A stretch of DNA of 10,339 bases, from the IMG/VR virus record IMGVR_UViG_2671180710_000010, positions 1-10,339 of that record. One strand, 5' to 3'. The translations under genes and the position numbers were made by a program. The DNA comes from a virus (Duplodnaviria > Heunggongvirae > Uroviricota > Caudoviricetes). Each line of letters starts with the position of its first letter. The first letter of the stretch is position 1. Shown here one piece after another: positions 1 to 10,339 of the stretch. The notes beneath the pieces were generated by a model that worked only from the letters and a program-made list of their open reading frames with translations, did no database searches and was not told the DNA's origin.

Positions 1-232
1 TAGCGCCCGCTGACCGCTGCCAGCCTTTCAGCATGTAAATCGCATCCACACAACGAATCATTGCCATGCAAATATCCATGTAGTGCGGCTGTGTCAGCCC
101 GTCCGGAAGTACTGCCGGGTTTAAGACGGTATGCCCTTCCCGTTTCAGTTCCTCTTCCGCCTTGTGAAACGCCTCACGGTTGAAATTTTCATATCCCGTC
201 ATTGGACCGGCAATATAAACTCTCACCCTCAC
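1..232 (-). CDS. DUF4406-like (nucleoside 2-deoxyribosyltransferase-like) protein, N-terminal part only; gene runs off the window start
   Basis: Minus-strand translation from GTG at 232 gives MRVRVYIAGPMTGYENFNREAFHKAEEELKREGHTVLNPAVLPDGLTQPHYMDICMAMIRCVDAIYMLKGWQRSAGA with no stop to position 1. AGGAGG SD (245..240) lies 7 nt upstream and the start overlaps the stop of the upstream gene. The YIAGPMTG...NF..F motif matches my recollection of DUF4406 proteins. Start could instead be GTG 226 or ATG 202. Confidence 0.5.
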   Translation of the reverse strand, partial: MRVRVYIAGPMTGYENFNREAFHKAEEELKREGHTVLNPAVLPDGLTQPHYMDICMAMIRCVDAIYMLKGWQRSAGA

Positions 233-621
233 TCCATCACCTCCTGAAAGTTTCCCCGATAGAACGCCAGCACACGCTGCATAACTTCGCTCTGGCGGCA
301 CTCACGACAAATTATGTTCTGCCGTCTGTTGTAACGACGTATTTCTCCGTCAGGTAACTTTCGAATCAGTGTCGGGTCAGCAGCCTTCTCCGGTGTCTTA
401 CGCCATACGCGATACGCCTGCTCTGATGGAAATACCCCGCAATCAGAGAGCCAGACATCACCACTGACCGCAAGCGCACCAGATAAACGACGAATAGCGG
501 TCTTACTGACACCCGTTTTATCTGCCAGTTGTCGAAAAGTTTCTCGTCCGCTCAGGCGCACGAATTCCACAATGCGCGCCTTCACTTCTTCCCGCTCTTC
601 TGGTGTAAATACTTTTGCCAT
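229..621 (-). CDS. Hypothetical phage protein with a predicted helix-turn-helix (about 130 aa)
   Basis: Listed ORF 229..636 begins at a TTG. ATG at 621 has a GGAGG SD 5 nt upstream, giving MAKVFTPEEREEV.... HTH-like segment TFRQLADKTGVSKTAIRRL; C-terminal CRECRQ. Sits 15 nt after the upstream gene in the same operon. Confidence 0.55.
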   Translation of the reverse strand: MAKVFTPEEREEVKARIVEFVRLSGRETFRQLADKTGVSKTAIRRLSGALAVSGDVWLSDCGVFPSEQAYRVWRKTPEKAADPTLIRKLPDGEIRRYNRRQNIICRECRQSEVMQRVLAFYRGNFQEVME

Positions 622-636
622 AAGCGCCTCCGGCAA

Positions 637-1398
637 TCACTTTTCCGATACAACACGGCGGGAAGAATCAGTAATCTGTCGAACAATATCCCGGTGCTTG
701 TTCAGCTCCCGCAGCGCGGCGCAGACTCGCTCCCACTTCTGAACATCACTTTTCGCCCTGCGCAGCGCCAGGTTTGCCCTGCGCAGGGACGGAAAAATCA
801 GCTCATCTGCTTGCGTTTCGGTAAACGATGGCAACGACTGCACAATGTCCGCCACAGTTTCTGTTTTAATTTCTTCCTGTGTTGCGGCTTCCCGGACTGG
901 TAACGCAGCACCTGCTGGCTGAGGAAAGGCCTTACCATCACTTTCCGTTACCGATGCTGCTTTCGGCTCTGCTGGTAAATTATCGCCCGGCATGCAGTAA
1001 CGAAATTTACCGTTCTGATTAACGCGAATCAGACGACCTTTACTGATTGCCATTGCCAGCTTTGAAGCCACTTTGCGTGATGTGATGCCGAAAAACGTAG
1101 CCAGTTCATCCGCCGTTTGTGGGCCACGTTGTTCAATCGTCGCAGTTAAATCGCTCTCCGAAATTTTAGCGACTGTTGCCGTGGTGGTTTCTTCCGACAG
1201 TTCTGCCGGCGCTGGCTGTTCCCGCTGAACGTTGTTATAAGCCACACGCCAGGTGTACGCGCTTTTATCAACGAAACCAGCCTTTTTCAGTTCCCATAGT
1301 TCGTTCAGCACTTCTTCACGACTGATATCAAGTCGCGCAGCCAGTTCTACCGACGTGGCTTTTCCCATCGCTTTCAGTGCGTCAAAAACAGTCTCCAT
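637..1398 (-). CDS. Phage protein with two predicted winged-helix segments (DUF1627-like, recalled family)
   Basis: 253-aa ORF. ATG at 1398 has GGAGG 6 nt upstream. Two similar HTH-like segments ([26 protein letters not shown] and [29 protein letters not shown]). Family name is from memory only. Confidence 0.6.
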
Positions 1399-1430
1399 AA
1401 ATTTCCTCCCGGTAAAAATTACTTCTCAAC

Positions 1431-2096
1431 TCAAACAAACCCAGCCGCTTTCCGGCGTTCATATTCCTGTTTCAGCAACTCAATTGGCGTTGGCCCCGAC
1501 GGGCGTTTGGGTGCCGCCAGTTGTCGCCGGACTGGCGGAACGCTCAGGCCGTTACTAACATGCTTTGCCCATTTCGCCAGCTGCCGTTCTGCAAGCCGTT
1601 TTAATTCCCCTTCGGTCATCTGGCGCTCAATCCCCTTTGAACGCATCTCGAGGCAAATGTGATACAGCACAGGCTGAGACCACGGGTACTTATCACTTCC
1701 GTCATATCGCCAGGACTCATTGCGCCAGCGGCGGTACTCCTCCATCACAGCATCCACCGTCAGACCGAATGGATTGGCTCCGCTTTCCGAAATCAGTGCC
1801 ACAAACTCAGCCAGGTCCGGAGGCCATGTTTCACCCGCCCGGCAGCGGTCCATGCACTGGCGGCAGACCTGTCGGATTTGCTGCTCAGTCATCGCGCCAA
1901 TCTGTGCAATCCAGAGCTTCGAAGGTGCGGCCCCGTTCTTCTGGGTCCAGCGGTTCGAATAAACCTCCCCCATGAGTTCCCACAGCTTCCAGACCGTTTC
2001 CGTCGCTGATAAATCCGTTTTCACGTTCCCACTGCTCACGTGCTGCCCGAATTTCCTGAACTGCCCGTGATGCGGTGCCACCTGGTGCTGCTGCAT
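1431..2096 (-). CDS. Replication protein P-like (DnaB helicase loader family)
   Basis: 221-aa ORF. C-terminal region (..EYRRWRNESWRYDGSDKYPWSQPVLYHICLEMRSKG..TEGELKRLAERQL..) aligns by eye with the recalled lambda P C-terminus (..YEYCRKRGLYPDAESYPWKSNAHYWLV..TDAELRRKAADEL..). ATG 2096 has AGGGGG 6 nt upstream but overlaps the O-like gene by 212 nt; alternative starts at 1973 or 1892. Confidence 0.65.
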   Translation of the reverse strand: MQQHQVAPHHGQFRKFGQHVSSGNVKTDLSATETVWKLWELMGEVYSNRWTQKNGAAPSKLWIAQIGAMTEQQIRQVCRQCMDRCRAGETWPPDLAEFVALISESGANPFGLTVDAVMEEYRRWRNESWRYDGSDKYPWSQPVLYHICLEMRSKGIERQMTEGELKRLAERQLAKWAKHVSNGLSVPPVRRQLAAPKRPSGPTPIELLKQEYERRKAAGFV

Positions 2097-2925
2097 GGTT
2101 TACCCCCTTGCTGACTGGTTTAACCTGCGCCCTGACGTGATTTACGTGACGGGCGAATTTCTGCTCCCACTGAATCTGCGTAAACACTTTCCCCTCCGCT
2201 GCCCAGTAGTCCCGGAAGGCGGCAAGTTCAGCAGGTGTAAATTCTGTCTCCGGCAAAGCCATCCCCCACAACGCAGCCCGTCGTCGAAAATCCCGTGACG
2301 GATACCAGCTATCGGTCATCGGAAATTTTCCGATGGGTTCGCTCAGGCCATCCAGGAATACAAGGGGTGCTGCCTGTAACGACAAAACTTCCTGCTCACT
2401 GGTCGGAGCACTCTCGCGTGCGTTATGTGTGGGGTTTAGATCTTTGGGTTCCTTTGGGTTCCGTGATCCGTTTTTGGGTGTCTTTGATGGAAAATTTGGG
2501 TGTCTTTGGTTATTTTCCATGCAGCTAAGAGTTCCGTTTTTGGGTCTGTTTTGTGCTGAAACATAACCATTTTCGGTACTGTTTTTATTAACAGCACCAA
2601 TTTTACCCACCTTTAAAGACTCCCGTTTTTGGGTGTATTCAGGCTCGGCAACACTTTCTTCTACACCGATAAGTCGGTACACCACAATTTGCTTTGTTCT
2701 GCCTTTTCTCTCACCGGTATCAACAATTAACCCAATCTCCATCAGGTGTCGTAAGCTGTCCTGCACAGTCTTTTTGTTCAGTTCCGTTACTTCTGCCAGT
2801 GCAGATACAGACGGGTATGCACACAAATCGGCACCGCACATATCAGCAAGCCAAGTCAATACAGACTTACTGGATGAACTGCCGGTTTTCACCTTTTTAG
2901 CCCATCGTAGTGCATCGATACTCAT
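1885..2925 (-). CDS. Replication initiator (lambda O position): N-terminal HTH domain, central low-complexity linker encoded by the iterons, C-terminal DnaT-like region
   Basis: ORF is open 1885..3000. ATG at 2925 (MSIDALRWAKKVK...) has AGGGG 5 nt upstream and overlaps the upstream gene end by 29 nt. N-terminal HTH (LAEVTELNKKTVQDSLRHLMEIGLI), Pro/Lys/Asn-rich linker, C-terminal FTPAELAAFRDYWAAEGKVFTQIQWEQKFARHV. Position between the CII-position gene and the P-like gene. Confidence 0.65.
   Translation of the reverse strand: MSIDALRWAKKVKTGSSSSKSVLTWLADMCGADLCAYPSVSALAEVTELNKKTVQDSLRHLMEIGLIVDTGERKGRTKQIVVYRLIGVEESVAEPEYTQKRESLKVGKIGAVNKNSTENGYVSAQNRPKNGTLSCMENNQRHPNFPSKTPKNGSRNPKEPKDLNPTHNARESAPTSEQEVLSLQAAPLVFLDGLSEPIGKFPMTDSWYPSRDFRRRAALWGMALPETEFTPAELAAFRDYWAAEGKVFTQIQWEQKFARHVNHVRAQVKPVSKGVNHAAAPGGTASRAVQEIRAAREQWERENGFISDGNGLEAVGTHGGGLFEPLDPEERGRTFEALDCTDWRDD
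2441..2640. repeat. Iteron cluster plus AT-rich tract inside the O-like gene (putative replication origin)
   Basis: Same-orientation copies with a TTTGGGT core: CCGTTTTTGGGTGTCTTTG (2468-2486), AAAATTTGGGTGTCTTTGG (2491-2509), CCGTTTTTGGGTCTGTTTTG (2534-2553), CCGTTTTTGGGTGTATTC (2623-2640), plus tandem CTTTGGGTTCC x2 (2441-2462). AT-rich stretch 2554-2620. Same arrangement as ori-lambda inside gene O. Confidence 0.5.
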
Positions 2926-3448
2926 ACGAACCCCTGGCAGACATTTGTTTATCTGCAAAGTAATATTGATATTGCTGACGATACGCATGCTTGAAAGCAA
3001 TAGCTTTTTCTATAAGCTCGTCAGTCTCACGTTCCACAACAGATGGATCCGCAAAAAGCAGCCCGGACTCCACCACATCGCCATATTCTTTGTTTAACCC
3101 GGCGATCATGTACGTAATGCTTTTTCCGTCAGTAATTTCACAATACAACCTGAAATCGCTGATCCGGATAGCCTCCATAATTGCCGGAATCAGCGCCGTG
3201 AATTTTTCCCGCTTATCCCTGGTGTCGATAGCTTTCCAGCGTTCGAATATCTTCACCCGGTTAACGCCCAGCGCCCGTTGATCAACCTCGCCATCATTAA
3301 ACGTGACGCGTTGAACATCGATGTTCGGGCGTTCTTTCAGAGCCCAGAATGCTTCCGTGATTAATATCGTCGCCTGCTCCTGTGTCATTCCTGGTCGGCA
3401 TACCCAGGCATCCAGAGCCTCACAAACCTGTTCAGGGGTGATTTTCAT
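2897..3448 (-). CDS. YdaT-like regulator in the CII position (183 aa)
   Basis: ATG at 3448 overlaps the end of the cro-like gene by 17 nt. Motif TRDKREKFTALIPAIMEAI resembles the REK..LIPAI segment I recall in Rac YdaT. Position immediately downstream of cro-like and upstream of the replication genes. Confidence 0.45.
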   Translation of the reverse strand: MKITPEQVCEALDAWVCRPGMTQEQATILITEAFWALKERPNIDVQRVTFNDGEVDQRALGVNRVKIFERWKAIDTRDKREKFTALIPAIMEAIRISDFRLYCEITDGKSITYMIAGLNKEYGDVVESGLLFADPSVVERETDELIEKAIAFKHAYRQQYQYYFADKQMSARGSYEYRCTTMG

Positions 3449-3659
3449 TGTTCAACCGCCCCGCCCGCTTCGTCTTACGATATTCGTCATAAACTTTGGG
3501 ATCATACTGAAGCTCACCGCCAGATGCCTCCTGTAGACGCATCGCGCGACCTTCAGGAACCAGTTTCCCCCATGCAGCAACGCTTGCCAGCCTAACTCCT
3601 GCGGCATTGGCAAGCTTTGTTTTGCTGCCAAAAAACGCTATAGCATCAATTTTCAACAT
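3432..3659 (-). CDS. dicC: Cro-like repressor DicC
   Basis: 75 aa (MLKIDAIAFFGSKTKLANAAGVRLASVAAWGKLVPEGRAMRLQEASGGELQYDPKVYDEY...). AAGGAG SD 6 nt upstream of the ATG. Divergent from the dicA-like gene across a 76-bp operator region. Matches recalled DicC/YdaS-Cro family proteins. Confidence 0.8.
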   Translation of the reverse strand: MLKIDAIAFFGSKTKLANAAGVRLASVAAWGKLVPEGRAMRLQEASGGELQYDPKVYDEYRKTKRAGRLNNENHP

Positions 3660-3735
3660 ATCGAACTCCTTAGATTTTCCTAAGGAAACTAGATCGTAGA
3701 GAAACCTAAGTCAAGAAAAATTAGAATTACCTAAT
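3660..3735. promoter_or_regulatory. Divergent promoter/operator region between dicC and dicA
   Basis: Inverted repeat CCTTAG-N6-CTAAGG (3668-3685). AACCTAAG (3703-3710) overlaps a minus-strand -35 TTGACT (rc of 3709-3714). Plus-strand -10 TAGAAT (3722-3727) sits 8 nt before the dicA ATG, which has no SD. Confidence 0.6.
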
Positions 3736-4143
3736 ATGAAAAACGAAACCTTCGGTGCTCGCCTCTTATACAGGCGTAAAAAATTAAAACTGTCTCAGGC
3801 CGCATTAGGTAAGCTGGTCAAAGTGGCTCACGTAACAATTTCTCAATGGGAAAGAGATGAAACACAGCCAGCGGGGAAGAGATTATTCGCACTGAGCCAG
3901 GCGCTTCAGTGCTCGCCGACTTGGCTTCTTTTTGGAGATGAAGATAAGCAACCAGGCGAACCGATCCCAGATAATCAGCCAGTTAATCTGACAGAAGATC
4001 AAAAAGAGTTGCTTCAACTGTTCGACGCACTGCCTGAGTCAGAGCAAAAGGCTCTGTTGTCAGAGATGCGTGCTCGAGTTGAGAATTTCAACAAACTTTT
4101 TGAAGAACTACTCAAAGCTCGCAAAAGAAGCGCAAATAAATAA
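3736..4143 (+). CDS. dicA: Immunity repressor DicA (XRE-family HTH)
   Basis: 135 aa. N-terminal HTH (LSQAALGKLVKVAHVTISQWERDE). Motifs FALSQALQCSPTWLLFGDEDKQP and EMRARVENFNKLFEELLKARKR match my recollection of E. coli K-12 DicA, also 135 aa. Confidence 0.85.
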   Translation: MKNETFGARLLYRRKKLKLSQAALGKLVKVAHVTISQWERDETQPAGKRLFALSQALQCSPTWLLFGDEDKQPGEPIPDNQPVNLTEDQKELLQLFDALPESEQKALLSEMRARVENFNKLFEELLKARKRSANK

Positions 4144-4214
4144 CCCCCCCTTTTTTCGCCACTCTCTGTAATAAAAATCACAAACTTTCAAATGCTTGTG
4201 TTTTTTACATCAAA

Positions 4215-4271
4215 AAACTTAGGTTTTTCTACACAAAAAGCTTGACCACAATTCTTAGGTTATTCTAAATT
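4215..4271 (+). promoter_or_regulatory. Candidate promoter of the downstream ydfA-dicF-dicB operon with overlapping operator-like repeats
   Basis: -35 TTGACC (4242-4247), 18-nt spacer, -10 TAAATT (4266-4271). Two direct CTTAGGTT copies (4218-4225, 4254-4261), the reverse complement of AACCTAAG in the dicC-dicA intergenic region. Confidence 0.4.
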
Positions 4272-4347
4272 CTACTCATCAAGACACCGCACGGTGTTCT
4301 CAGCAAACAGTTCCGCTACCCTGGCGTTAAGGGGAAATGAGGTCAGC

Positions 4348-4500
4348 ATGGATACTATCGATCTTGGCAACAACGAATCTCTGGTATGCGGCGTGTTTCC
4401 CAACCAGGACGGCACGTTTACCGCGATGACGTATACCAAAAGTAAAAAGTTTAAAACCGAAGCTGGCGCGCGTCGCTGGTTAGCCAGAAACACTAACTGA
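4348..4500 (+). CDS. ydfA: Small protein YdfA-like (50 aa)
   Basis: ATG 4348 has GAGG 5 nt upstream; MDTIDLGNNESLVCGVFPNQDGTFTAMTYTKSKKFKTEAGARRWLARNTN. The listed ORF starts at GTG 4294 without an SD. Same position and size as K-12 Qin ydfA (51 aa, recalled). Confidence 0.55.
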   Translation: MDTIDLGNNESLVCGVFPNQDGTFTAMTYTKSKKFKTEAGARRWLARNTN

Positions 4501-4750
4501 TTAGCACCAGTAAAAACAGGTTGCCACTGGTTAATTTACCCTGAAAAGTCAGGGCATAACACGAAAGCGCACGGAGAAGCTCGTCTCTCTGTACTTTGTC
4601 GTTAAATTTAATTCGACCGTGCGCTTCCGGTTGTGGCAATCCGCGAAATGGCGCGGCGGTAAGTATGGCGGGGTTATTCCTTCCCCTTGAGGACACCGGG
4701 TTGTCAGGCTGACCATACGCTTAAGTGACAGCCCCGCCACAATATCCATG

Positions 4751-4803
4751 TGTAGTCTTTGGTGGCATCAGTTCTACTCCGTGACTGCTCTGCCACCCTT
4801 TTT
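4751..4803 (+). ncRNA. dicF: DicF small RNA (ftsZ-targeting sRNA of dicB operons)
   Basis: TTTGGTGGCATCAGTTCTACTCCGTGACTGCTCTGCCACCCTTTTT closely matches recalled K-12 DicF (..GGCGGUAUCAGUUUUACUCCGUGACUGCUCUGCCGCCCUUUUU). Ends in an intrinsic terminator. 5' end approximate. Confidence 0.7.
4761..4803 (+). terminator. Intrinsic terminator forming the DicF 3' end
   Basis: Perfect 7-bp stem GGTGGCA (4761-4767) / TGCCACC (4791-4797) with inner CAGT/ACTG pairing, followed by TTTTT (4799-4803). Confidence 0.65.
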
Positions 4804-5010
4804 AAAGTGAATTTTGTGATGCGGTGAATGCGGCTAAGCGCACGCGGAACAGTTAAAACCGTAAAGTGGTCTTTTACGGGGCGTAACGGGCATACTTCTG
4901 TATTCCGGCGTTAATTGTTAACTGGTTAACGTCACCTGGAGGCACCAGGCACTGCATCAACAAAGTTCACTTCGGTGATGAAAGGTAAGAGAAAATGTTG
5001 AATGTAGCTA

Positions 5011-5039
5011 TTGAAAACCAGAACGGGTGGAATTATAGT
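5011..5039 (+). promoter_or_regulatory. Near-consensus sigma70 promoter upstream of rha
   Basis: -35 TTGAAA (5011-5016), 17-nt spacer, -10 TATAGT (5034-5039). Predicted start near 5046. Confidence 0.4.
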
Positions 5040-5094
5040 GCACCTGCACCTCATAAAACGGGTGCCGGGATTGCTACCCCGATGTTCATCATGG

Positions 5095-5127
5095 CGCATA
5101 ACCGCGCTCAGGCGGTTTTTTTATGCG
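5095..5127 (+). terminator. Intrinsic terminator-like hairpin with U-tract
   Basis: Stem AACCGC (5100-5105) / GCGGTT (5112-5117), 6-nt loop, T-run 5116-5122. An alternative outer stem CGCATAA (5095-5101) / TTATGCG (5121-5127) is also possible. About 75 nt downstream of the predicted start. Confidence 0.5.
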
Positions 5128-5288
5128 TAATGCACAGCCACATTCAGATTATGGTGGGGCGTGCAGGGCAGCCGCAAGGCTGGCCGGGTTCCATGATGAC
5201 CGGTTGTAGCAACCCTGTGCGTCTCACCACCCATGAGATTGCTACCTCCGGTGGTGAGTTAATGAAATTCATCATGGAGGCTGCCATC

Positions 5289-5846
5289 ATGGCTACTATC
5301 CCTGCCCTTTCTCACCCTGAAATTACTATCGCCAATGGGCGTGCTGTTACATCCTCTTTAGCTGTTGCCGAGTATTTCCGGAAACCACACAAAGATGTAC
5401 TGGCAAAAATTTCACGTCTAGACTGTTCAGCGGAATTCACTGAGCGAAATTTTTCGCCCAGTGAATATACCGACTCAACCGGGCGCAAACTCCCTATGTA
5501 CCAAATCACCAAAAACGGCTTCGTTTTCCTGGTGATGGGCTTCACCGGCAAAAAAGCCGCTGCATTTAAAGAAGCCTACATCGCTGAGTTCGATCGCATG
5601 GAGAAAGAACTGCGCCAGAATAACGCCCCGTCTCCCGACAAAATGATTCACGGGGACGGACGTACCCTGGTTATCCGTCTCGACGAACACGGCAATATCA
5701 AATTCACTGAAACCGTTCCGGACGGCGCAATGGTCTGCACCCTGGATACCTTCCAGTTTTATCTGGAAAAACAAGGCTGGACTCTTGTAAACCGGAGCGC
5801 AATTAAAAATATGACTGTGGAGCAATTACTAAAAATTCATTGTTGA
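5289..5846 (+). CDS. rha: Phage regulatory protein Rha family
   Basis: ATG 5289 has GGAGG 8 nt upstream. N-terminus MATIPALSHPEITIANGRAVTSSLAVAEYFRKPHKDVLAKI fits the Rha N-terminal domain pattern. The listed ORF extends in frame to 4995, but that extension contains the promoter and terminator above and has atypical composition. Confidence 0.75.
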   Translation: MATIPALSHPEITIANGRAVTSSLAVAEYFRKPHKDVLAKISRLDCSAEFTERNFSPSEYTDSTGRKLPMYQITKNGFVFLVMGFTGKKAAAFKEAYIAEFDRMEKELRQNNAPSPDKMIHGDGRTLVIRLDEHGNIKFTETVPDGAMVCTLDTFQFYLEKQGWTLVNRSAIKNMTVEQLLKIHC

Positions 5847-5856
5847 GGACGCGATA

Positions 5857-6045
5857 ATGGAAACGTTATTACCAAACGTTAATACGTCTGAAGGGTGTTT
5901 TGATATTGGTGTTCTGCTCAGTAACCGGGAGTTTACTGAAGATGCCATTAAGATGAGAAAATATGAGCCTTATCTTCTCAATGATAATTCCATACTCTCC
6001 AGAATTGCCCTTCTTGAACTTGGTATTTTCGGGGGGCAGCAGTGA
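5857..6045 (+). CDS. dicB: Cell-division inhibitor DicB
   Basis: 62 aa, METLLPNVNTSEGCFDIGVLLSNREFTEDAIKMRK..., matching recalled K-12 DicB (MKTLLPNVNTSEGCFEIGV...; 62 aa). GAGGA SD 7 nt upstream. Downstream of dicF. Confidence 0.8.
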   Translation: METLLPNVNTSEGCFDIGVLLSNREFTEDAIKMRKYEPYLLNDNSILSRIALLELGIFGGQQ

Positions 6046-6230
6046 CTTCTGCATTTGCACTGGTAATGACTGTTTTTCTTATAACGGGTGAATCACAGAA
6101 TGTGATTACCGGAATTTATGCCAGTAAAGAATCCTGCCTCCAGGCAAGAGACGAGCAAAAAATTTCTGGTGAATGCCTCCCGTTAAAAAAAGTATCGCTG
6201 TACCTGAATAACGAAATACCGGCTGGATAA
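6042..6230 (+). CDS. ydfD: Small membrane protein, YdfD-like (62 aa)
   Basis: GTG start overlaps the dicB stop (GTGA), with a G-run 5 nt upstream. N-terminal hydrophobic segment AFALVMTVFLITG. Position matches ydfD after dicB in K-12 Qin (recalled). Confidence 0.55.
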   Translation: MTSAFALVMTVFLITGESQNVITGIYASKESCLQARDEQKISGECLPLKKVSLYLNNEIPAG

Positions 6231-6322
6231 CCCACCAGCCATATTAACGCCATACAAACGGATTAAAAATGCCAGCAATGGCAGGGATTCGCACAACCTT
6301 AAAATAGTAATGAGGTTTATCA

Positions 6323-8866
6323 ATGAGCACTGATAAAGAAACTTTTGCACTATATTGCGAAGCAAAAAATGACAAGGTCAGAAAACGCCTTGGGATTAAA
6401 GGTGGTTTTTACTGGACTACAGCAAAAAAATTATCTGTTGCCATCTCCCGCTGCATTACCGCAATGGATGATAATGATTATGACGAGGACGACTTTAAAA
6501 AACCTGTTCGCGTCCATTTACCCGTTGTGAATGACCTTCCTCCAGAAGGCGTGTTTGATACTGAATTCTGCAACCGTTACGAAAAAGGCGGGGAAGATGG
6601 TATCACAATGATATTTATAGCTCCTTCCCCTTCAGCTCAGGACAAACCTGCCAGCACTGACAATACCAGCGGCGAAGCTGTTACAGGTGTCAGCCGTGAC
6701 TGCGATGAACAAAGTGACTCTCAGACAGAGAACGCAGATAAAAGCGAATCCCCGGACAGCAACGATGACTGCCCTGAATGTGAAATCCCCGTCTCCACCC
6801 TGAGTCTTACCCATCGCTTCCTGCACCTCTACTTCTTTGGTCAGGAGTTCGACGAGAAATACAAACATCACGCCACACCAGAACAACGCAAGGACGTGAT
6901 CCGCATCGAAATGGATATGGAAGATGGAAACATACAGAGCCTGCTTACTGCAGTACGTTCGCATCCTGAGCTGGATAAGCTGACAAACCATCATCTTGGA
7001 AGACTGGCGCATTCGGTGGAAAAGGCATTCACTCACGCAACAACACGCCGTATCAGCCCGGCAGAATTCGACAAGTTCATTTCCACCTGGATGAAGACTG
7101 ACTACCTTGATCAGGGGCTGTTGACAAAAGAGTGGGCAAAGGGAAATTGCGTATCTGAAATCAATCGCACCCCGTCCGGCGCTAATGCTGGCGGAGGAAT
7201 TCTTACCGATCGCGGTGAAGGTTTTGTCCACGATGATGCGTCAGTGGAACGTGACGTTGCCGCTGGCGTTCTGGCCCGTTCAATGGACATCGATATTTAC
7301 AATCCACATCCGGCACACGCCAAACGCATTGAAGAAATCGTTTCAGAGAATAAGCCGCCCTTTTCTGTTTTTCGTGACAAACTCATCGCCATGCCTGGTC
7401 ACCTGGATTATTCCCGCGCGATAGTAGTTGCGTCCGTGAAAGAAGCACCAATTGGTATCGAGGCTACTCCCCACCGTGTTACCGAATATCTGAACAAAGT
7501 ACTGACCGAAACCGACCATGCCAACCCTGATCCAGAAATCGTGGATATTGCCTGCGGTCGCTCCTCTGCTCCAATGCCGCAGCGTGTAACAAAAGAAGGA
7601 AAACAGGATGATGAAGAAAAACCGCAGCCAACTGGCGCAATGGCAGATGAACAGGCAACGACTGAAGCAGTGGAACCGGATACAACTGAACATAATCAGG
7701 ACACGCAGTCGATGGATGCTCAGCCACAGATAAATTCTGTTGATGCGAAATATCAGAAACTGCGTGCAGAACTCCATGAAGCCAGGAAAAACATTCCACC
7801 CAAAAATCCTGTCGATGCAGATAAATTACTGGCTGCTTCTCACGGAGAATTTGTTGAAGGGATTAGCGACCCGAATGATCCGAAATGGGTGAAGGGGATT
7901 GAAACCCGCGATTCTGTGAACCAGAACCAGCACGAATCGGAACAAAACGACCAGAAAGCGGAACAAAACAGCCCAAATGCGTTACAAAACGAGCCAGAAA
8001 CGAAACAGCCTGAACCAGAAGAGCAACAAGAACCGGAAAAAGTCTGCACCGCCTGCGGTCAGACCGGCGACGGCAACTGTCCTGACTGTGGCGCGGTAAT
8101 GGGCGACGCAACATACCAGGAAACATTCAACGAAGAAAGCCAGGATGAAGCCCGGGAGAAAGATCCAGAGGAAATGGAAAGTGCCGTATACCCGAACAAG
8201 GAGTGCACCGAAGGCGATCAACATGCCAATGGCAATAATGAAACAGGCGAGACAGCAAATCCCTTAATTAAGGTGAACGGTCATCACGAAAGCACATCCA
8301 CCAGCAGGTTGTGGCACCATCTGATGATTGACCTTGAAACAATGGGCAAAAATCCTGATGCCCCAATAAACGCTCTGGCCGGTAAGTTTTTTGATCCGGC
8401 AACCGGAGAGATGGGGCCAGAATTCAGCAAAACTATCGATCTGGAAACCGCAGGCGGAGTCATCGATCGGGACACCATTAAGTGGTGGCTGAAACAGTCA
8501 CGGGAAGCACAATCAGCCATTCTGACCGATGAAATCCCGTTGGATGACGCACTGTTGCAATTACGGGAATTTATCGACGAAAACTCCGGTGAATTTTTTG
8601 TTCAGGTCTGGGGAAATGGAGCCAACTTCGACAACGTGATTTTACGCCGTTCATATGAACGGCAGGAGATCCCCTGCCCGTGGCGTTACACCAATGATCG
8701 TGATGTAAGAACGATTGTTGCCCTGGGGCTGGTGATGGATTTCGATGCTCGAAGTGTCATCACATTTGAGGGTGAACGCCATAATGCCCTGCACGATGCG
8801 CGTTACCAGGCAAAATACGTTTCAGCTATCTGGCAAAAACTGTTCCCGAATCAGGCTGATTTTTAA
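6323..8866 (+). CDS. Large multidomain protein with C-terminal DEDDh (DnaQ-like) 3'-5' exonuclease domain, in the recE/ydfE position
   Basis: 847-aa ORF with GAGG SD 7 nt upstream. C-terminal exonuclease motifs: MIDLETMG (D670, E672; nt 8324-8347), GANFDNVIL (D770; nt 8630-8632), HNALHDA (H820, D825; nt 8780-8797). Cys clusters CPEC (aa 150-153) and C-x2-C-x7-C-x2-C (aa 575-589, nt 8045-8089). Long acidic/Gln-rich low-complexity linkers. Confidence 0.8.
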
Positions 8867-8932
8867 TGTTCAACCCATATCGCCGCCCACCAGCTATAGT
8901 GGCGGCGGTCATGCTGTAAGGCACGTGACCAC

Positions 8933-9184
8933 ATGTACGAATTAACTCTATCGCCAGCAGAAATTCAAGAGATCACGAGATACGAACGGTATACAAAACA
9001 GCAACAACAGTTAAGGTTGCACGGTATCCCATTTGTACCCGGTCCTAAAAACGAACCAATAGTTCTTCGCAGTGATGTCCCGCGCGGACTGACTGCGATA
9101 CCGAAAGTATCTGAACTGGTTTCTGCTGACCCCGATTTTGAGGCGCTGAACAATGGGAAGACCAAGAAAAAACAAAAAAGATAA
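8933..9184 (+). CDS. xis: Excisionase (Xis-like)
   Basis: 83 aa; N-terminus MYELTLSPAE and basic C-terminus NGKTKKKQKR resemble lambda Xis (MYLTLQEW... / ..RNGKKAKS, recalled). 3' end overlaps the int start by 32 nt, as in lambda. Confidence 0.6.
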   Translation: MYELTLSPAEIQEITRYERYTKQQQQLRLHGIPFVPGPKNEPIVLRSDVPRGLTAIPKVSELVSADPDFEALNNGKTKKKQKR

Positions 9185-10172
9185 TGCACTACCGCCACGT
9201 GTTAGATCGAATGGTTACAGTTACGTATGGAAACCCGAAGGAAGCACAAAAACTATAGGGCTCGGAAGAGTGCGGGAAACCACCATAGCTAAAGTCTGGC
9301 AGAATTATGAACTGGAAAAAGCAAAACGCCACAACATAATGACCGTCGCTAAATTATGGCACATGTTTATGGATTCCCCCGCATTTACAGAACTGGCCCC
9401 CAGAACCCAAAAAGATTATCGGCAACATCAGAGGGCGTTGCTGGCAGTCTTCGGAAAAGTACTGGCTGATAATGTAAAAATTGAGCAGGTAAGAATTTTC
9501 ATGGATAAACGGGGGATTGAGAGCAAGACCCAGGCAAACCATGAACTGGCAAGTCTCAGTCGTGTATACGGGTGGGGATATGAACGTGGATATGTGAAGA
9601 ATAACCCATGCAAAGGAGTCAGGAAATTTACGCTTAAAGCCCGCACTGTTTACATCACAGATGAACAGTATGCGGCGATATATGCGGAAGCAATACCACA
9701 GTTACGCATTGCAATGGAGATATCCTATCTTTGTGCGGCAAGACTCGGTGATGTGCTCGAGCTGAAATGGCAGGATATTATGGATAAAGGGATCTACATT
9801 GAGCAAAACAAGACCGGCACCAAACAAATCAAGGAATGGTCTCCACGATTACGAACCGCGATCCAGTTAGCCAGAAATGTATCTTCAGGCACATGTGAAT
9901 ATGTGATCAACACAACCAAGGGCGGGAAGGTCATAGCTAAAACGCTAAACAACTGGTGGAACCAGGCTAAACACGCAGCCGAGAAAAAATCCGGCGTCCC
10001 GTTTGGGTGCAATTTCCATGACATAAAAGCCAAAGGGATATCAGATTACGAAGGAAGCAGTCGCGACAAACAGATTTTCAGTGGACATAAAACAGAAAAT
10101 CAGGTGTTGATTTATGATCGTAAAACAAAAATCACGCCGACACTGGATTTGCCACTTGTGGTCAGCAAGTAG
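9153..10172 (+). CDS. int: Tyrosine integrase (lambda Int family)
   Basis: 339 aa. N-terminus MGRPRKNKKDNALPPRVRSNGYSYVWKPEGSTKTIGLGR resembles the lambda Int arm-binding N-terminus. C-terminal ..FHDIKAKGISDYEGSSRDKQIFSGHKTENQVLIYDRK aligns with lambda HELRSLSARLYEKQISDKFAQHLLGHKSDTMASQYRDDRG (recalled), including the catalytic Tyr. Lies next to the att core. Confidence 0.9.
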   Translation: MGRPRKNKKDNALPPRVRSNGYSYVWKPEGSTKTIGLGRVRETTIAKVWQNYELEKAKRHNIMTVAKLWHMFMDSPAFTELAPRTQKDYRQHQRALLAVFGKVLADNVKIEQVRIFMDKRGIESKTQANHELASLSRVYGWGYERGYVKNNPCKGVRKFTLKARTVYITDEQYAAIYAEAIPQLRIAMEISYLCAARLGDVLELKWQDIMDKGIYIEQNKTGTKQIKEWSPRLRTAIQLARNVSSGTCEYVINTTKGGKVIAKTLNNWWNQAKHAAEKKSGVPFGCNFHDIKAKGISDYEGSSRDKQIFSGHKTENQVLIYDRKTKITPTLDLPLVVSK

Positions 10173-10311
10173 GCAACTCAGGAAATTTTCTGGCAAAAAA
10201 AGACTTGGTATACTAACTCTGAAAGCTCCCTAACAGCCTGATTTTTCTAGGTGTTAAGTTTGGTTAATTTTTCAGCAGTTTTTTGTATTGCATTGATTTT
10301 TATTTGTTTTT

Positions 10312-10339
10312 CATCGGTCTTGAAAACCGGCGACCCGAA
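10312..10339 (+). other. Attachment-site core: 3' portion of a tRNA-Ser(UGA)-like sequence, truncated by the window end
   Basis: CATCGGTCTTGAAAACCGGCGACCCGAA forms an anticodon stem-loop (stem TCGGT/ACCGG, loop CTTGAAA, anticodon TGA). It matches my recollection of E. coli tRNA-Ser(UGA) from the anticodon stem onward (..CACCGGUCUUGAAAACCGGCGACCCGAAAGGG..). Upstream sequence is unrelated to a tRNA 5' half. Confidence 0.45.

Follow-up and report, generated by a model that had tools for sequence, protein, structure and literature searches.

A P4-type antisense-RNA immunity cassette with a Rha-family gene between dicF and dicB of a Qin-like prophage

Introduction

In Escherichia coli K-12 the gene for the small RNA (sRNA) DicF lies directly upstream of dicB, at a distance of 174 nt (dicF at 4383-4435 and dicB from 4610 of the K-12 locus, L001). 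In a 10,339-nucleotide stretch of a Caudoviricetes virus (IMG/VR record IMGVR_UViG_2671180710_000010, positions 1 to 10,339; "the window" means this whole stretch) the two genes are ~1058 nt apart. We wondered what occupies the additional space and what it might mean for dicB, which encodes a division inhibitor that also acts in phage exclusion. An earlier note, made from the sequence alone, had read the locus as a modular operon with a complete rha gene, equipped with a promoter and a terminator of its own, placed between dicF and dicB. We found instead that the insert is an antisense-RNA immunity cassette of the P4/P1/Gifsy-1 type, which combines an IsrK decoy RNA, a C4 repressor RNA and a nested long/short gene for a Rha-family protein. 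Control of this putative antirepressor by a P4-type cassette is in our judgement the probable function of the ~860-bp insert, which by its position may also gate transcription into dicB-ydfD and beyond.

Several known systems bear on this question. The 3' part of DicF pairs with ftsZ and pykA and its 5' end with xylR (Vanderpool group, PMC5069750); the survey of dicBF contexts in that work mentions varying contexts, not a cassette of isrK, C4 and Rha. DicA-type repressors are controlled by antirepressors; in K-12 it is Rem that counteracts DicA, a short, non-cleavable repressor of the Gifsy type (PMC10448788). The c4 and c4-a1b1 motifs are widespread in proteobacteria and phages (Weinberg et al., PMC2864571). 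For the satellite phage P4, a secondary source (PMC10111431) describes transcripts from a constitutive promoter inside eta that are quickly terminated via CI/seqA interactions and processed to CI. According to this summary, Kil is made only on occasional read-through, while full-length Eta requires transcription from an upstream late promoter, its translation preventing the termination; the Rfam families C4 and isrK serve there to detect relatives of CI and seqA. Our literature searches on dicF/dicB/Rha, isrK + C4, STnc1160 and Qin returned no prior description of such a cassette in the dicBF operon.

Results

A discrete insert separates dicF from dicB

Alignment of the window to K-12 Qin showed that the sRNA to the left of the insert aligns with dicF and that the reference arrangement differs in the dicF-dicB distance given above. 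The Rfam DicF model (RF00039) matched over its full length (model positions 1-52; 61.1 bits, gathering threshold 48) at 4747-4798, and the T-run extends to 4803, so that the earlier placement at 4751-4803 was essentially right. The remark that the 5' region departs from K-12 was borne out as well: the alignment has CCATGTGTAGTC here and TTTCTGGTGACG in K-12. Between TTTGG and CCCTTTTT there are four differences from K-12. Three of them fall on paired stem positions and are compensatory (GGTGGC/GCCACC here, GGCGGT/GCCGCC in K-12), and the fourth is a T-to-C change at the border of stem and loop. The 3' region that pairs with ftsZ is conserved in sequence. As to its position, the RNA lies upstream of dicB in an operon that carries a DicA orthologue.

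Collinearity with K-12 ends at 4969 and resumes at 5832, ~25-27 nt before the dicB ATG. The stretch in between (Table 1) has one copy of an imperfect 10-nt direct repeat on either side, ACAAAGTTCA on the left (4960-4969) and TAAAAATTCA on the right (5830-5839). We compared 11 filled loci with 72 empty ones and found a single hybrid, ACAAAATTCA, at the junction of every empty locus (72/72). On sequence, this hybrid fits either a deletion between the repeats or a microhomology-guided insertion. Being an exact hybrid of both flanking repeats, it fits a deletion of the cassette; the occurrence of the same empty junction on both DicF backbones, with the cassette on just one of them, fits an insertion. 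The cassette was present only on the backbone with the variant DicF, and that backbone also occurs empty. Since filled and empty loci share exact junctions, the proposal of a discrete accessory module absent from K-12 stands. The wider notion of a modular operon was overstated: among 80 DicB-anchored IMG/VR contigs the slot was either empty or held this cassette, and no other cargo was found in it. Two of the IMG/VR loci were exceptional in lacking dicF, one through a deletion (L088) and one through a different upstream region (L093).

The insert encodes isrK and C4 ahead of the Rha domain

Two RNA genes in the first third of the "rha" open reading frame (ORF) had gone unnoticed. Rfam matches above the gathering thresholds identified isrK and C4 (Table 1), and a further Rfam family, "a1, b1 targets of C4", overlaps isrK. 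The isrK gene has its own promoter and its own intrinsic terminator. The promoter, P_isrK, is the only strong sigma-70 promoter of the region, lies inside the annotated ORF and ends 6 nt before the isrK +1; hexamers matching it stand at an equal distance from the isrK +1 in 15/15 related loci. The promoter and terminator that had been assigned to rha therefore do not belong to it, as the former drives IsrK from within the ORF and the latter is that of IsrK, 5' of the Rha domain. A scan of the plus strand found no terminator between the rha stop at 5846 and the dicB start at 5857. A separate terminator of rha was rejected, as the only other candidate besides that of IsrK is a weak 5-bp hairpin at 5742-5756 inside the coding region. 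Taken together, the isrK and C4 matches in the first third of the ORF identify the insert as an RNA-immunity cassette of the type known from P4, P1 and Gifsy-1.

The same pair of Rfam matches was found in P4 (at the seqA and CI positions), Gifsy-1 (IsrK/STnc1160), ST64B (sb41), SfV (orf37, "immunity region") and phiP27. It was also found in several Stx1 and Stx2 phages, in the P2-like phage P88 and in the P1-like D6 and RCS47, in which icd-ant follows it. Beside two of the related cassettes we saw further RNA motifs: in TL-2011c the Rfam family sRNA-Xcc1 (5023-5106, 79.6 bits) just downstream of the rha gene, and in Stx2_131990 an ALIL pseudoknot, an IS3-type frameshift element (4066-4182), near the cassette.

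C4 is complementary to sites on both of its sides, and these sites covary

The C4 segments a' and b' have exact complements both upstream, within isrK, and downstream, at homologous positions: a':a1 and a':a2 extend over 7 nt each, b':b1 over 9 nt and b':b2 over 10 nt. The downstream target covers the ribosome-binding site of the first regulated gene, with b2 overlapping the GGAGG of the Shine-Dalgarno sequence (SD) that precedes the ATG at 5289. The motif GGAGGCTGCCATNATGGCTAC occurs in most of the cassettes that we sampled, among them the ones preceding P4 kil and the P1-like icd, and GGAGGCTGCCATCATGGCTAC together with the first ~11 codons (MATIPxLSHPE) is common to most of them. This conserved start motif designates the 185-aa Rha protein starting at 5289 as the regulated gene.

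The a and b segments differ in every phage that we examined, and their three copies change together; covariation was found in 15/15 related phage loci. The longest complement between b' and b2 had a mean of 8.8 nt when both came from the same locus and of 4.2 nt when they did not, and for the window the values were 10 nt (self) and at most 5 nt (non-self). The dicF-dicB slot alone harbors at least four specificity types, whose differences are coordinated and concentrated in a1, b1, b', a', a2 and b2. Coordinated changes of this kind, as read from the sequences, are the classical signature of RNA heteroimmunity. The textbook case is that of P1 and P7, whose specificities reportedly shift by coordinated a/b substitutions, too.

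We folded the unprocessed leader (5046-5310) in silico. In the minimum free energy (MFE) structure (z = -3.9), a1 is paired with a' and b1 with b' in cis, and both the SD, which pairs with CCUCC at 5245-5249, and the AUG are buried. The predicted fold corresponds to the translationally inactive "structure A" shown for Gifsy-1 (PMC4825925). In addition, the segment GGTGGTGAG (5250-5258) repeats the 5' strand of the closing stem of C4 and is complementary to its 3' strand, CTCACCACC (5223-5231). Counterparts of this pair covary in P4 (GGCGATAGC), D6/RCS47 (GCGGTAGC) and TL-2011c (GCGGTGG), which suggests an alternative helix in the unprocessed transcript.

Could the insert nevertheless be a stand-alone accessory gene (a "moron") with its own promoter and terminator, encoding a 283-aa protein that is free of RNA-level control? 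PGAP calls exactly this 283-aa ORF a Rha family protein in the closest relative, E. coli N51, in which DicF, IsrK and C4 are all unannotated. Moreover, the N-terminal part counts as protein in both phrog_995 and Pfam Phage_ASH, and the boundaries of the insert coincide with the ORF plus its SD. Against this, the two RNAs detected at gathering level cover aa 18-80 of the ORF, the sole strong promoter lies inside it and the sole strong terminator lies upstream of the Rha domain. Phage_ASH (PF10554; aa 14-109) and the N-terminal third of phrog_995 match the conceptual translation of isrK and C4 (4995-5288, aa 1-98), and the variable positions of this "Ash" part are exactly the mutually complementary a/b segments, which points to a constraint on RNA pairing and not on protein. 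We therefore regard a stand-alone rha gene as very improbable.

A long and a short frame end in the same Rha domain

The assignment of the coding part to rha held: Pfam Phage_pRha covers aa 119-204 of the 283-aa ORF (E 8e-31), and NCBIfam TIGR02681 agrees. Both matches exceed the curated cut-offs by far (PF09669, 106.8 bits versus 29.9; TIGR02681, 104.5 bits versus 45.95). The C-terminal ~80 aa form a separate domain with a weak likeness to AnrP-type antirepressors. We rejected Rha as an orthologue of Gifsy-1 AnrP because the similarity is weak and confined to the C-terminus (E = 0.007), and a PDB search with the short Rha returned no related solved structure at E <= 0.1; nor did we find a homologue that had been tested. 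As to the role of the effector, the only direct evidence comes from its Rha domain and from the labels "transcriptional regulator" and "anti-repressor" in PHROG. By analogy, Rha probably antagonises a short, non-cleavable repressor of the DicA/Gifsy type.

The long ORF starts 51 nt upstream of the isrK +1 and 16 nt upstream of the -35 hexamer, and from there it runs through both RNA genes in frame with Rha. This design was found in 9/16 of the loci sampled first, including P4, where the frame is eta and kil its terminal part. For a less biased view we assembled 31 non-redundant cassettes that were anchored only on the conserved SD-ATG motif. Here, the frame of the ATG was open for at least 290 nt upstream in 27/31 cassettes, compared with 0/31 and 5/31 for the other two frames. 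Between the specificity types of the dicF-dicB slot a 3-nt in-frame indel preserves the long frame.

How the cassette might act on Rha and dicB

By analogy with c4 of P1/P7, CI/seqA/eta/kil of P4 and IsrK of Gifsy-1, we propose the following sequence of events. As long as the operon is off under a DicA-like repressor, most P_isrK transcripts would end at the IsrK terminator, and those that read through would be processed to C4. C4 would hold the Rha start closed: it could pair with a2/b2 in trans, the cis fold could bury SD and AUG, or the two could act together. Untranslated rha would be prone to Rho-dependent termination, and dicB would remain silent. Surplus IsrK could titrate C4 or remodel the leader and thereby turn Rha on. 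When transcription arrives from the upstream dicBF promoter, ribosomes would begin at AUG 4995, pass through the IsrK terminator and C4 and override the RNA gate. This bypass would yield the 283-aa Ash-Rha protein along with DicB, YdfD and the products of the downstream genes. An antirepressor embedded in a DicA-controlled operon could, speculatively, give positive feedback.

Such feedback would be part of a more far-reaching scheme, in which Rha is the antirepressor of the very DicA-type repressor that is encoded 1 kb upstream. The balance of IsrK and C4 would then decide the firing of the whole operon (DicF, Rha, DicB, YdfD, exonuclease, xis and int), and matching C4 or IsrK from other prophages, satellites or incoming phages would silence or trigger DicB-dependent division arrest and exclusion in trans. 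If true, this would amount to an RNA-coded cross-talk or sensing network among prophages, but we consider the scheme improbable.

Several points weigh against the proposal that a P4-type cassette with a nested long frame controls Rha and gates dicB. For this locus, the processing of the RNAs, polarity through Rho, a translation start at AUG 4995 and the action of Rha as an antirepressor are all deduced by analogy with the other systems. To judge by sequence, the effector shares no homology with Gifsy-1 AnrP beyond the weak C-terminal likeness. Gifsy-1 IsrK is described as an activator that refolds the leader and not as a simple titrator of C4, and mechanistic details may therefore differ. Because a separate SD precedes dicB, the upstream operon promoter could account for most expression of this gene, and the cassette would then be a passenger and not a gate. 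The avoidance of stop codons in the long frame may in part reflect conserved RNA sequence and not selection for translation. The long ORF is truncated in 3/11 slot cassettes, and it is not present in Gifsy-1, the P1-like D6 and RCS47, TL-2011c and F765, all of which keep isrK and C4.

With regard to the truncated cassettes, L019 (IMG/VR 2617271340_000013) has a T8 instead of a T7 tail at the IsrK terminator, which shifts the frame and leaves a long ORF of 88 aa, and in L025 and L074 the Rha part is cut short (264 and 198 aa, respectively). These changes are either sequencing errors or real decay.

The loci that do without the long ORF are also what one would expect if the cassette operated in the Gifsy-1 manner only. 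The long ORF would then be a by-product that is never translated, and the short Rha alone would be made, from ATG 5289 or from an orf45-like start at 5130 or 5151, upon activation in trans by IsrK. The mechanism of Gifsy-1 is experimentally established (PMC4825925), and in-frame ATGs (5130 and 5151) are indeed found where the orf45 starts would lie. However, a frame that extends past the RNAs and the promoter in 27/31 non-redundant cassettes speaks against a mere by-product, and so does its preservation by the in-frame indel between specificity types. In addition, the long frames found in PR operons overlap the stop codon of the upstream gene, and the P4 counterpart, full-length eta, is described as translated once an upstream late promoter is active (PMC10111431). 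We consider operation in the Gifsy-1 manner only unlikely.

The cassette occupies the slot in about 7% of complete E. coli genomes

We counted matches with at least 80% query coverage among 5426 complete E. coli genomes. The K-12-type dicF-dicB stretch was present in 3838/5426 genomes and the filled left junction (4900-5300) in 396/5426 (~7%), many of them Shiga toxin-producing E. coli (STEC) isolates; the arrangement is thus not rare. The whole 4500-6330 stretch was found in 249/5426 genomes. In IMG/VR the exact b'+a' string of the window occurred in only four contigs, all of them dicF-dicB loci.

Elsewhere, members of the cassette family lie between cII and O in PR operons (ST64B, SfV, Stx2a_1447 and Stx1_132418), behind a restriction-modification unit that comes after cI (TL-2011c; F765 has the same restriction-modification pair), upstream of a derepression gene in P88 and in the P1-like immI. 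In E. coli N51 (L002), isrK and C4 occur once more at 11621-11822, with another specificity and with a c4-a1b1 match. This second pair is located directly past the prophage integrase beside a gene with an ORF6N domain and probably belongs to an adjacent element; the window ends at 10339, before the equivalent position.

Is the cassette perhaps an inert relic, a decaying passenger of a Qin-like prophage that has no present regulatory role for dicB or the host? Prophages of the Qin type are often cryptic, the direct K-12-type junction without the cassette prevails in 3838/5426 genomes, and the truncating changes in 3/11 slot cassettes would fit decay. On the other hand, all parts of the cassette are intact in the window, namely the promoter, the terminator, both RNA folds, the six a/b segments, the SD-ATG and the Rha ORF, and so are int, xis, exonuclease, dicA and dicC. 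At least four coordinated specificity variants in one slot argue for continuing selection on pairing. A relic is accordingly a far-fetched explanation in our view, and to judge by its sequence the cassette is apparently complete and functional.

Operon context

The insert is part of an early-left operon that resembles that of Qin; downstream, the exonuclease, xis and int genes are intact. The identity of dicB, as given in the earlier note, is secure (Pfam DicB PF05358, 125.3 bits versus a cut-off of 27; NCBIfam NF049927, 111.4 versus 100; 61% identity to K-12 DicB). The same applies to the ydfD-like gene, whose product is 47% identical to K-12 YdfD and whose GTG start overlaps the dicB stop by 4 nt (GTGA), as in K-12. 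The DicA orthologue is likely the repressor of the operon, and the window also encodes a DicC orthologue with 85% identity to that of K-12.

The divergent arm (2897-3659, minus strand) encodes a DicC/P22-Cro-like protein followed by a YdaT-family protein in the cII position, a combination that equals the YdaS/YdaT-type pair of Rac-like prophages. A GTG-started ORF of 68 aa at 4294-4500 is YdfA-like (DUF1391), with an N-terminal extension that is probably spurious. The ydfB and ydfC genes of K-12 Qin are absent (4500-4747 of the window), homology jumping from K-12 locus position ~3652, just after ydfA, to ~4103-4155. Downstream of the ydfD-like gene, positions 6323-8866 encode an 847-aa protein that consists of an Exonuclease VIII-like N-terminus, a long acidic low-complexity linker and a C-terminal Rv2179c-like 3'-5' exonuclease domain; K-12 has the pseudogene remnant ydfE at the corresponding position.

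Table 1. Coordinates of the cassette, its parts and the adjoining operon genes within the window
Feature	Position	Strand	Remarks
DicA orthologue, 135 aa	3736-4143	+	63% identical to K-12 DicA (also 135 aa)
DicF sRNA	4747-4803	+	Rfam RF00039; variant 5' end, conserved ftsZ-pairing 3' part, terminator hairpin and T-run
dicF-dicB spacer	4804-4969	+	~95% identical to K-12 Qin except 4865-4895; left junction repeat ACAAAGTTCA at its end
Inserted cassette, ~860 bp	4970-5831	+	not in K-12-type loci; from alignment to empty loci
Long nested ORF "Ash" + Rha, 283 aa	4995-5846	+	P4 eta-like frame; through isrK and C4 in frame with Rha
Sigma-70 promoter P_isrK	5011-5039	+	TTGAAA-17-TATAGT, 10/12; equivalent of P4 P_LE
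isrK RNA, 77 nt	5046-5122	+	Rfam RF01394, 65.5 bits (gathering 50); equivalent of P4 seqA / P1 a1-b1 decoy
a1 TTGCTAC	5071-5077	+	within isrK
b1 TCATCATGG	5086-5094	+	within isrK
IsrK intrinsic terminator	5100-5117 and T7 run	+	only strong plus-strand terminator in the insert
C4 antisense RNA	5147-5234	+	Rfam RF01695, 77.9 bits (threshold 45), full-length; equivalent of P4 CI RNA / Gifsy-1 STnc1160
b' TCCATGATGA	5190-5199	+	within C4
a' GTAGCAA	5206-5212	+	within C4
Downstream target and translation-initiation region	5239-5291	+	
a2 TTGCTAC	5239-5245	+	
Anti-SD CCUCC	5245-5249	+	
Stem-mimic GGTGGTGAG	5250-5258	+	
b2 TCATCATGGA	5269-5278	+	overlaps SD
SD GGAGG	5276-5280	+	GGAGG-N8-ATG, conserved start ATG 5289
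Short nested gene, Rha-family putative antirepressor, 185 aa (MATIPALSHPE...)	5289-5846	+	Rha domain aa 21-106
dicB, 62 aa	5857-6045	+	10 nt after rha stop; own SD (GAGGA); no intervening terminator
ydfD-like DUF1482 (PF07358) gene, 62 aa	6042-6230	+	58.5 bits versus cut-off 25

Discussion

According to our analysis, a P4-type RNA gate and the gene of a putative antirepressor immediately precede dicB in about 7% of complete E. coli genomes. In strains with the cassette, control of dicB likely departs from the scheme known from K-12, which relies on DicA, Rem and RNase processing (PMC10448788), and the hypothesis arises that heteroimmune antisense RNAs gate dicB expression in this fraction of genomes. 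With several coordinated specificity variants in one and the same slot, the locus offers a compact natural system for studying the evolution of RNA-based heteroimmunity. There is also a consequence for annotation: the 283-aa "Rha family protein" of PGAP, the Pfam family "Ash" and the N-terminus of PHROG-995 largely translate two RNA genes.

What is new here is the location and the member. The type of cassette, its RNAs and the logic of the nested ORFs have already been described for P4, P1/P7 and Gifsy-1, and no new mechanism is involved. The resemblance to the immunity region of P4, which consists of P_LE, seqA, the CI RNA and seqC with the nested genes eta and kil, is close in several respects. 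Both loci have an internal constitutive promoter inside a long ORF, which starts at -120 in P4 and at -51 here; in both, the short nested gene begins at the conserved GGAGGCTGCCATCATGGCTAC motif, and the segments of CI or C4 have a complementary site on either side, upstream as well as downstream. The loci differ in the effector, a 65-aa Kil in P4 and a Rha-domain protein here, in the spacer between isrK and C4 (107 nt versus 24 nt) and in the host element, the P4 replication operon as opposed to the early-left operon of a lambdoid Qin-like prophage. Finally, the long ORF of P4 is coupled to an upstream alpA-like gene (PMC10111431), whereas the one described here has its own SD.

Gifsy-1 of Salmonella (PMC4825925) has the same pair of isrK and C4 with a spacer of 24-25 nt, an IsrK terminator with a read-through mRNA, a cis helix between the middle of IsrK and the C4 region with a sequestered start, as predicted here, and a putative antirepressor as downstream effector. 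In Gifsy-1, however, orf45 is a separate gene, while the equivalent frame of the window is fused to the effector and reaches upstream of the promoter. The N-terminal Rha domain is unrelated to AnrP, and the Gifsy-1 locus adjoins antQ instead of lying between dicF and dicB. The window also departs from the isrK-orf45-anrP-isrJ order of Gifsy-1 in its fused frame, in the C-terminal-only likeness to AnrP and in the lack of any Rfam match to isrJ.

In the immI operon of P1/P7, where icd and ant1/ant2 follow c4, C4 likewise carries a' and b', with a1/b1 upstream and a2/b2 downstream, b2 covering the ribosome-binding site of the first gene, and D6 and RCS47 have the same layout as the window. The likeness to their icd is limited to the first ~11 codons (MATIPxxxHxE). 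The window differs from P1 immI in that no icd-sized ORF ends before the effector, in its Rha-type effector, which takes the place of Ant, and in its long ORF, which the P1-like loci do not have.

The dicBF operon of K-12 Qin, in turn, shares the gene order with the window, from divergent dicC and dicA through a ydfA-like gene, dicF, dicB, a ydfD-like gene and a ydfE-like exonuclease to int. In K-12 ydfE and intQ are pseudogenes, whereas the exonuclease, xis and int genes are intact in the prophage that carries the cassette.

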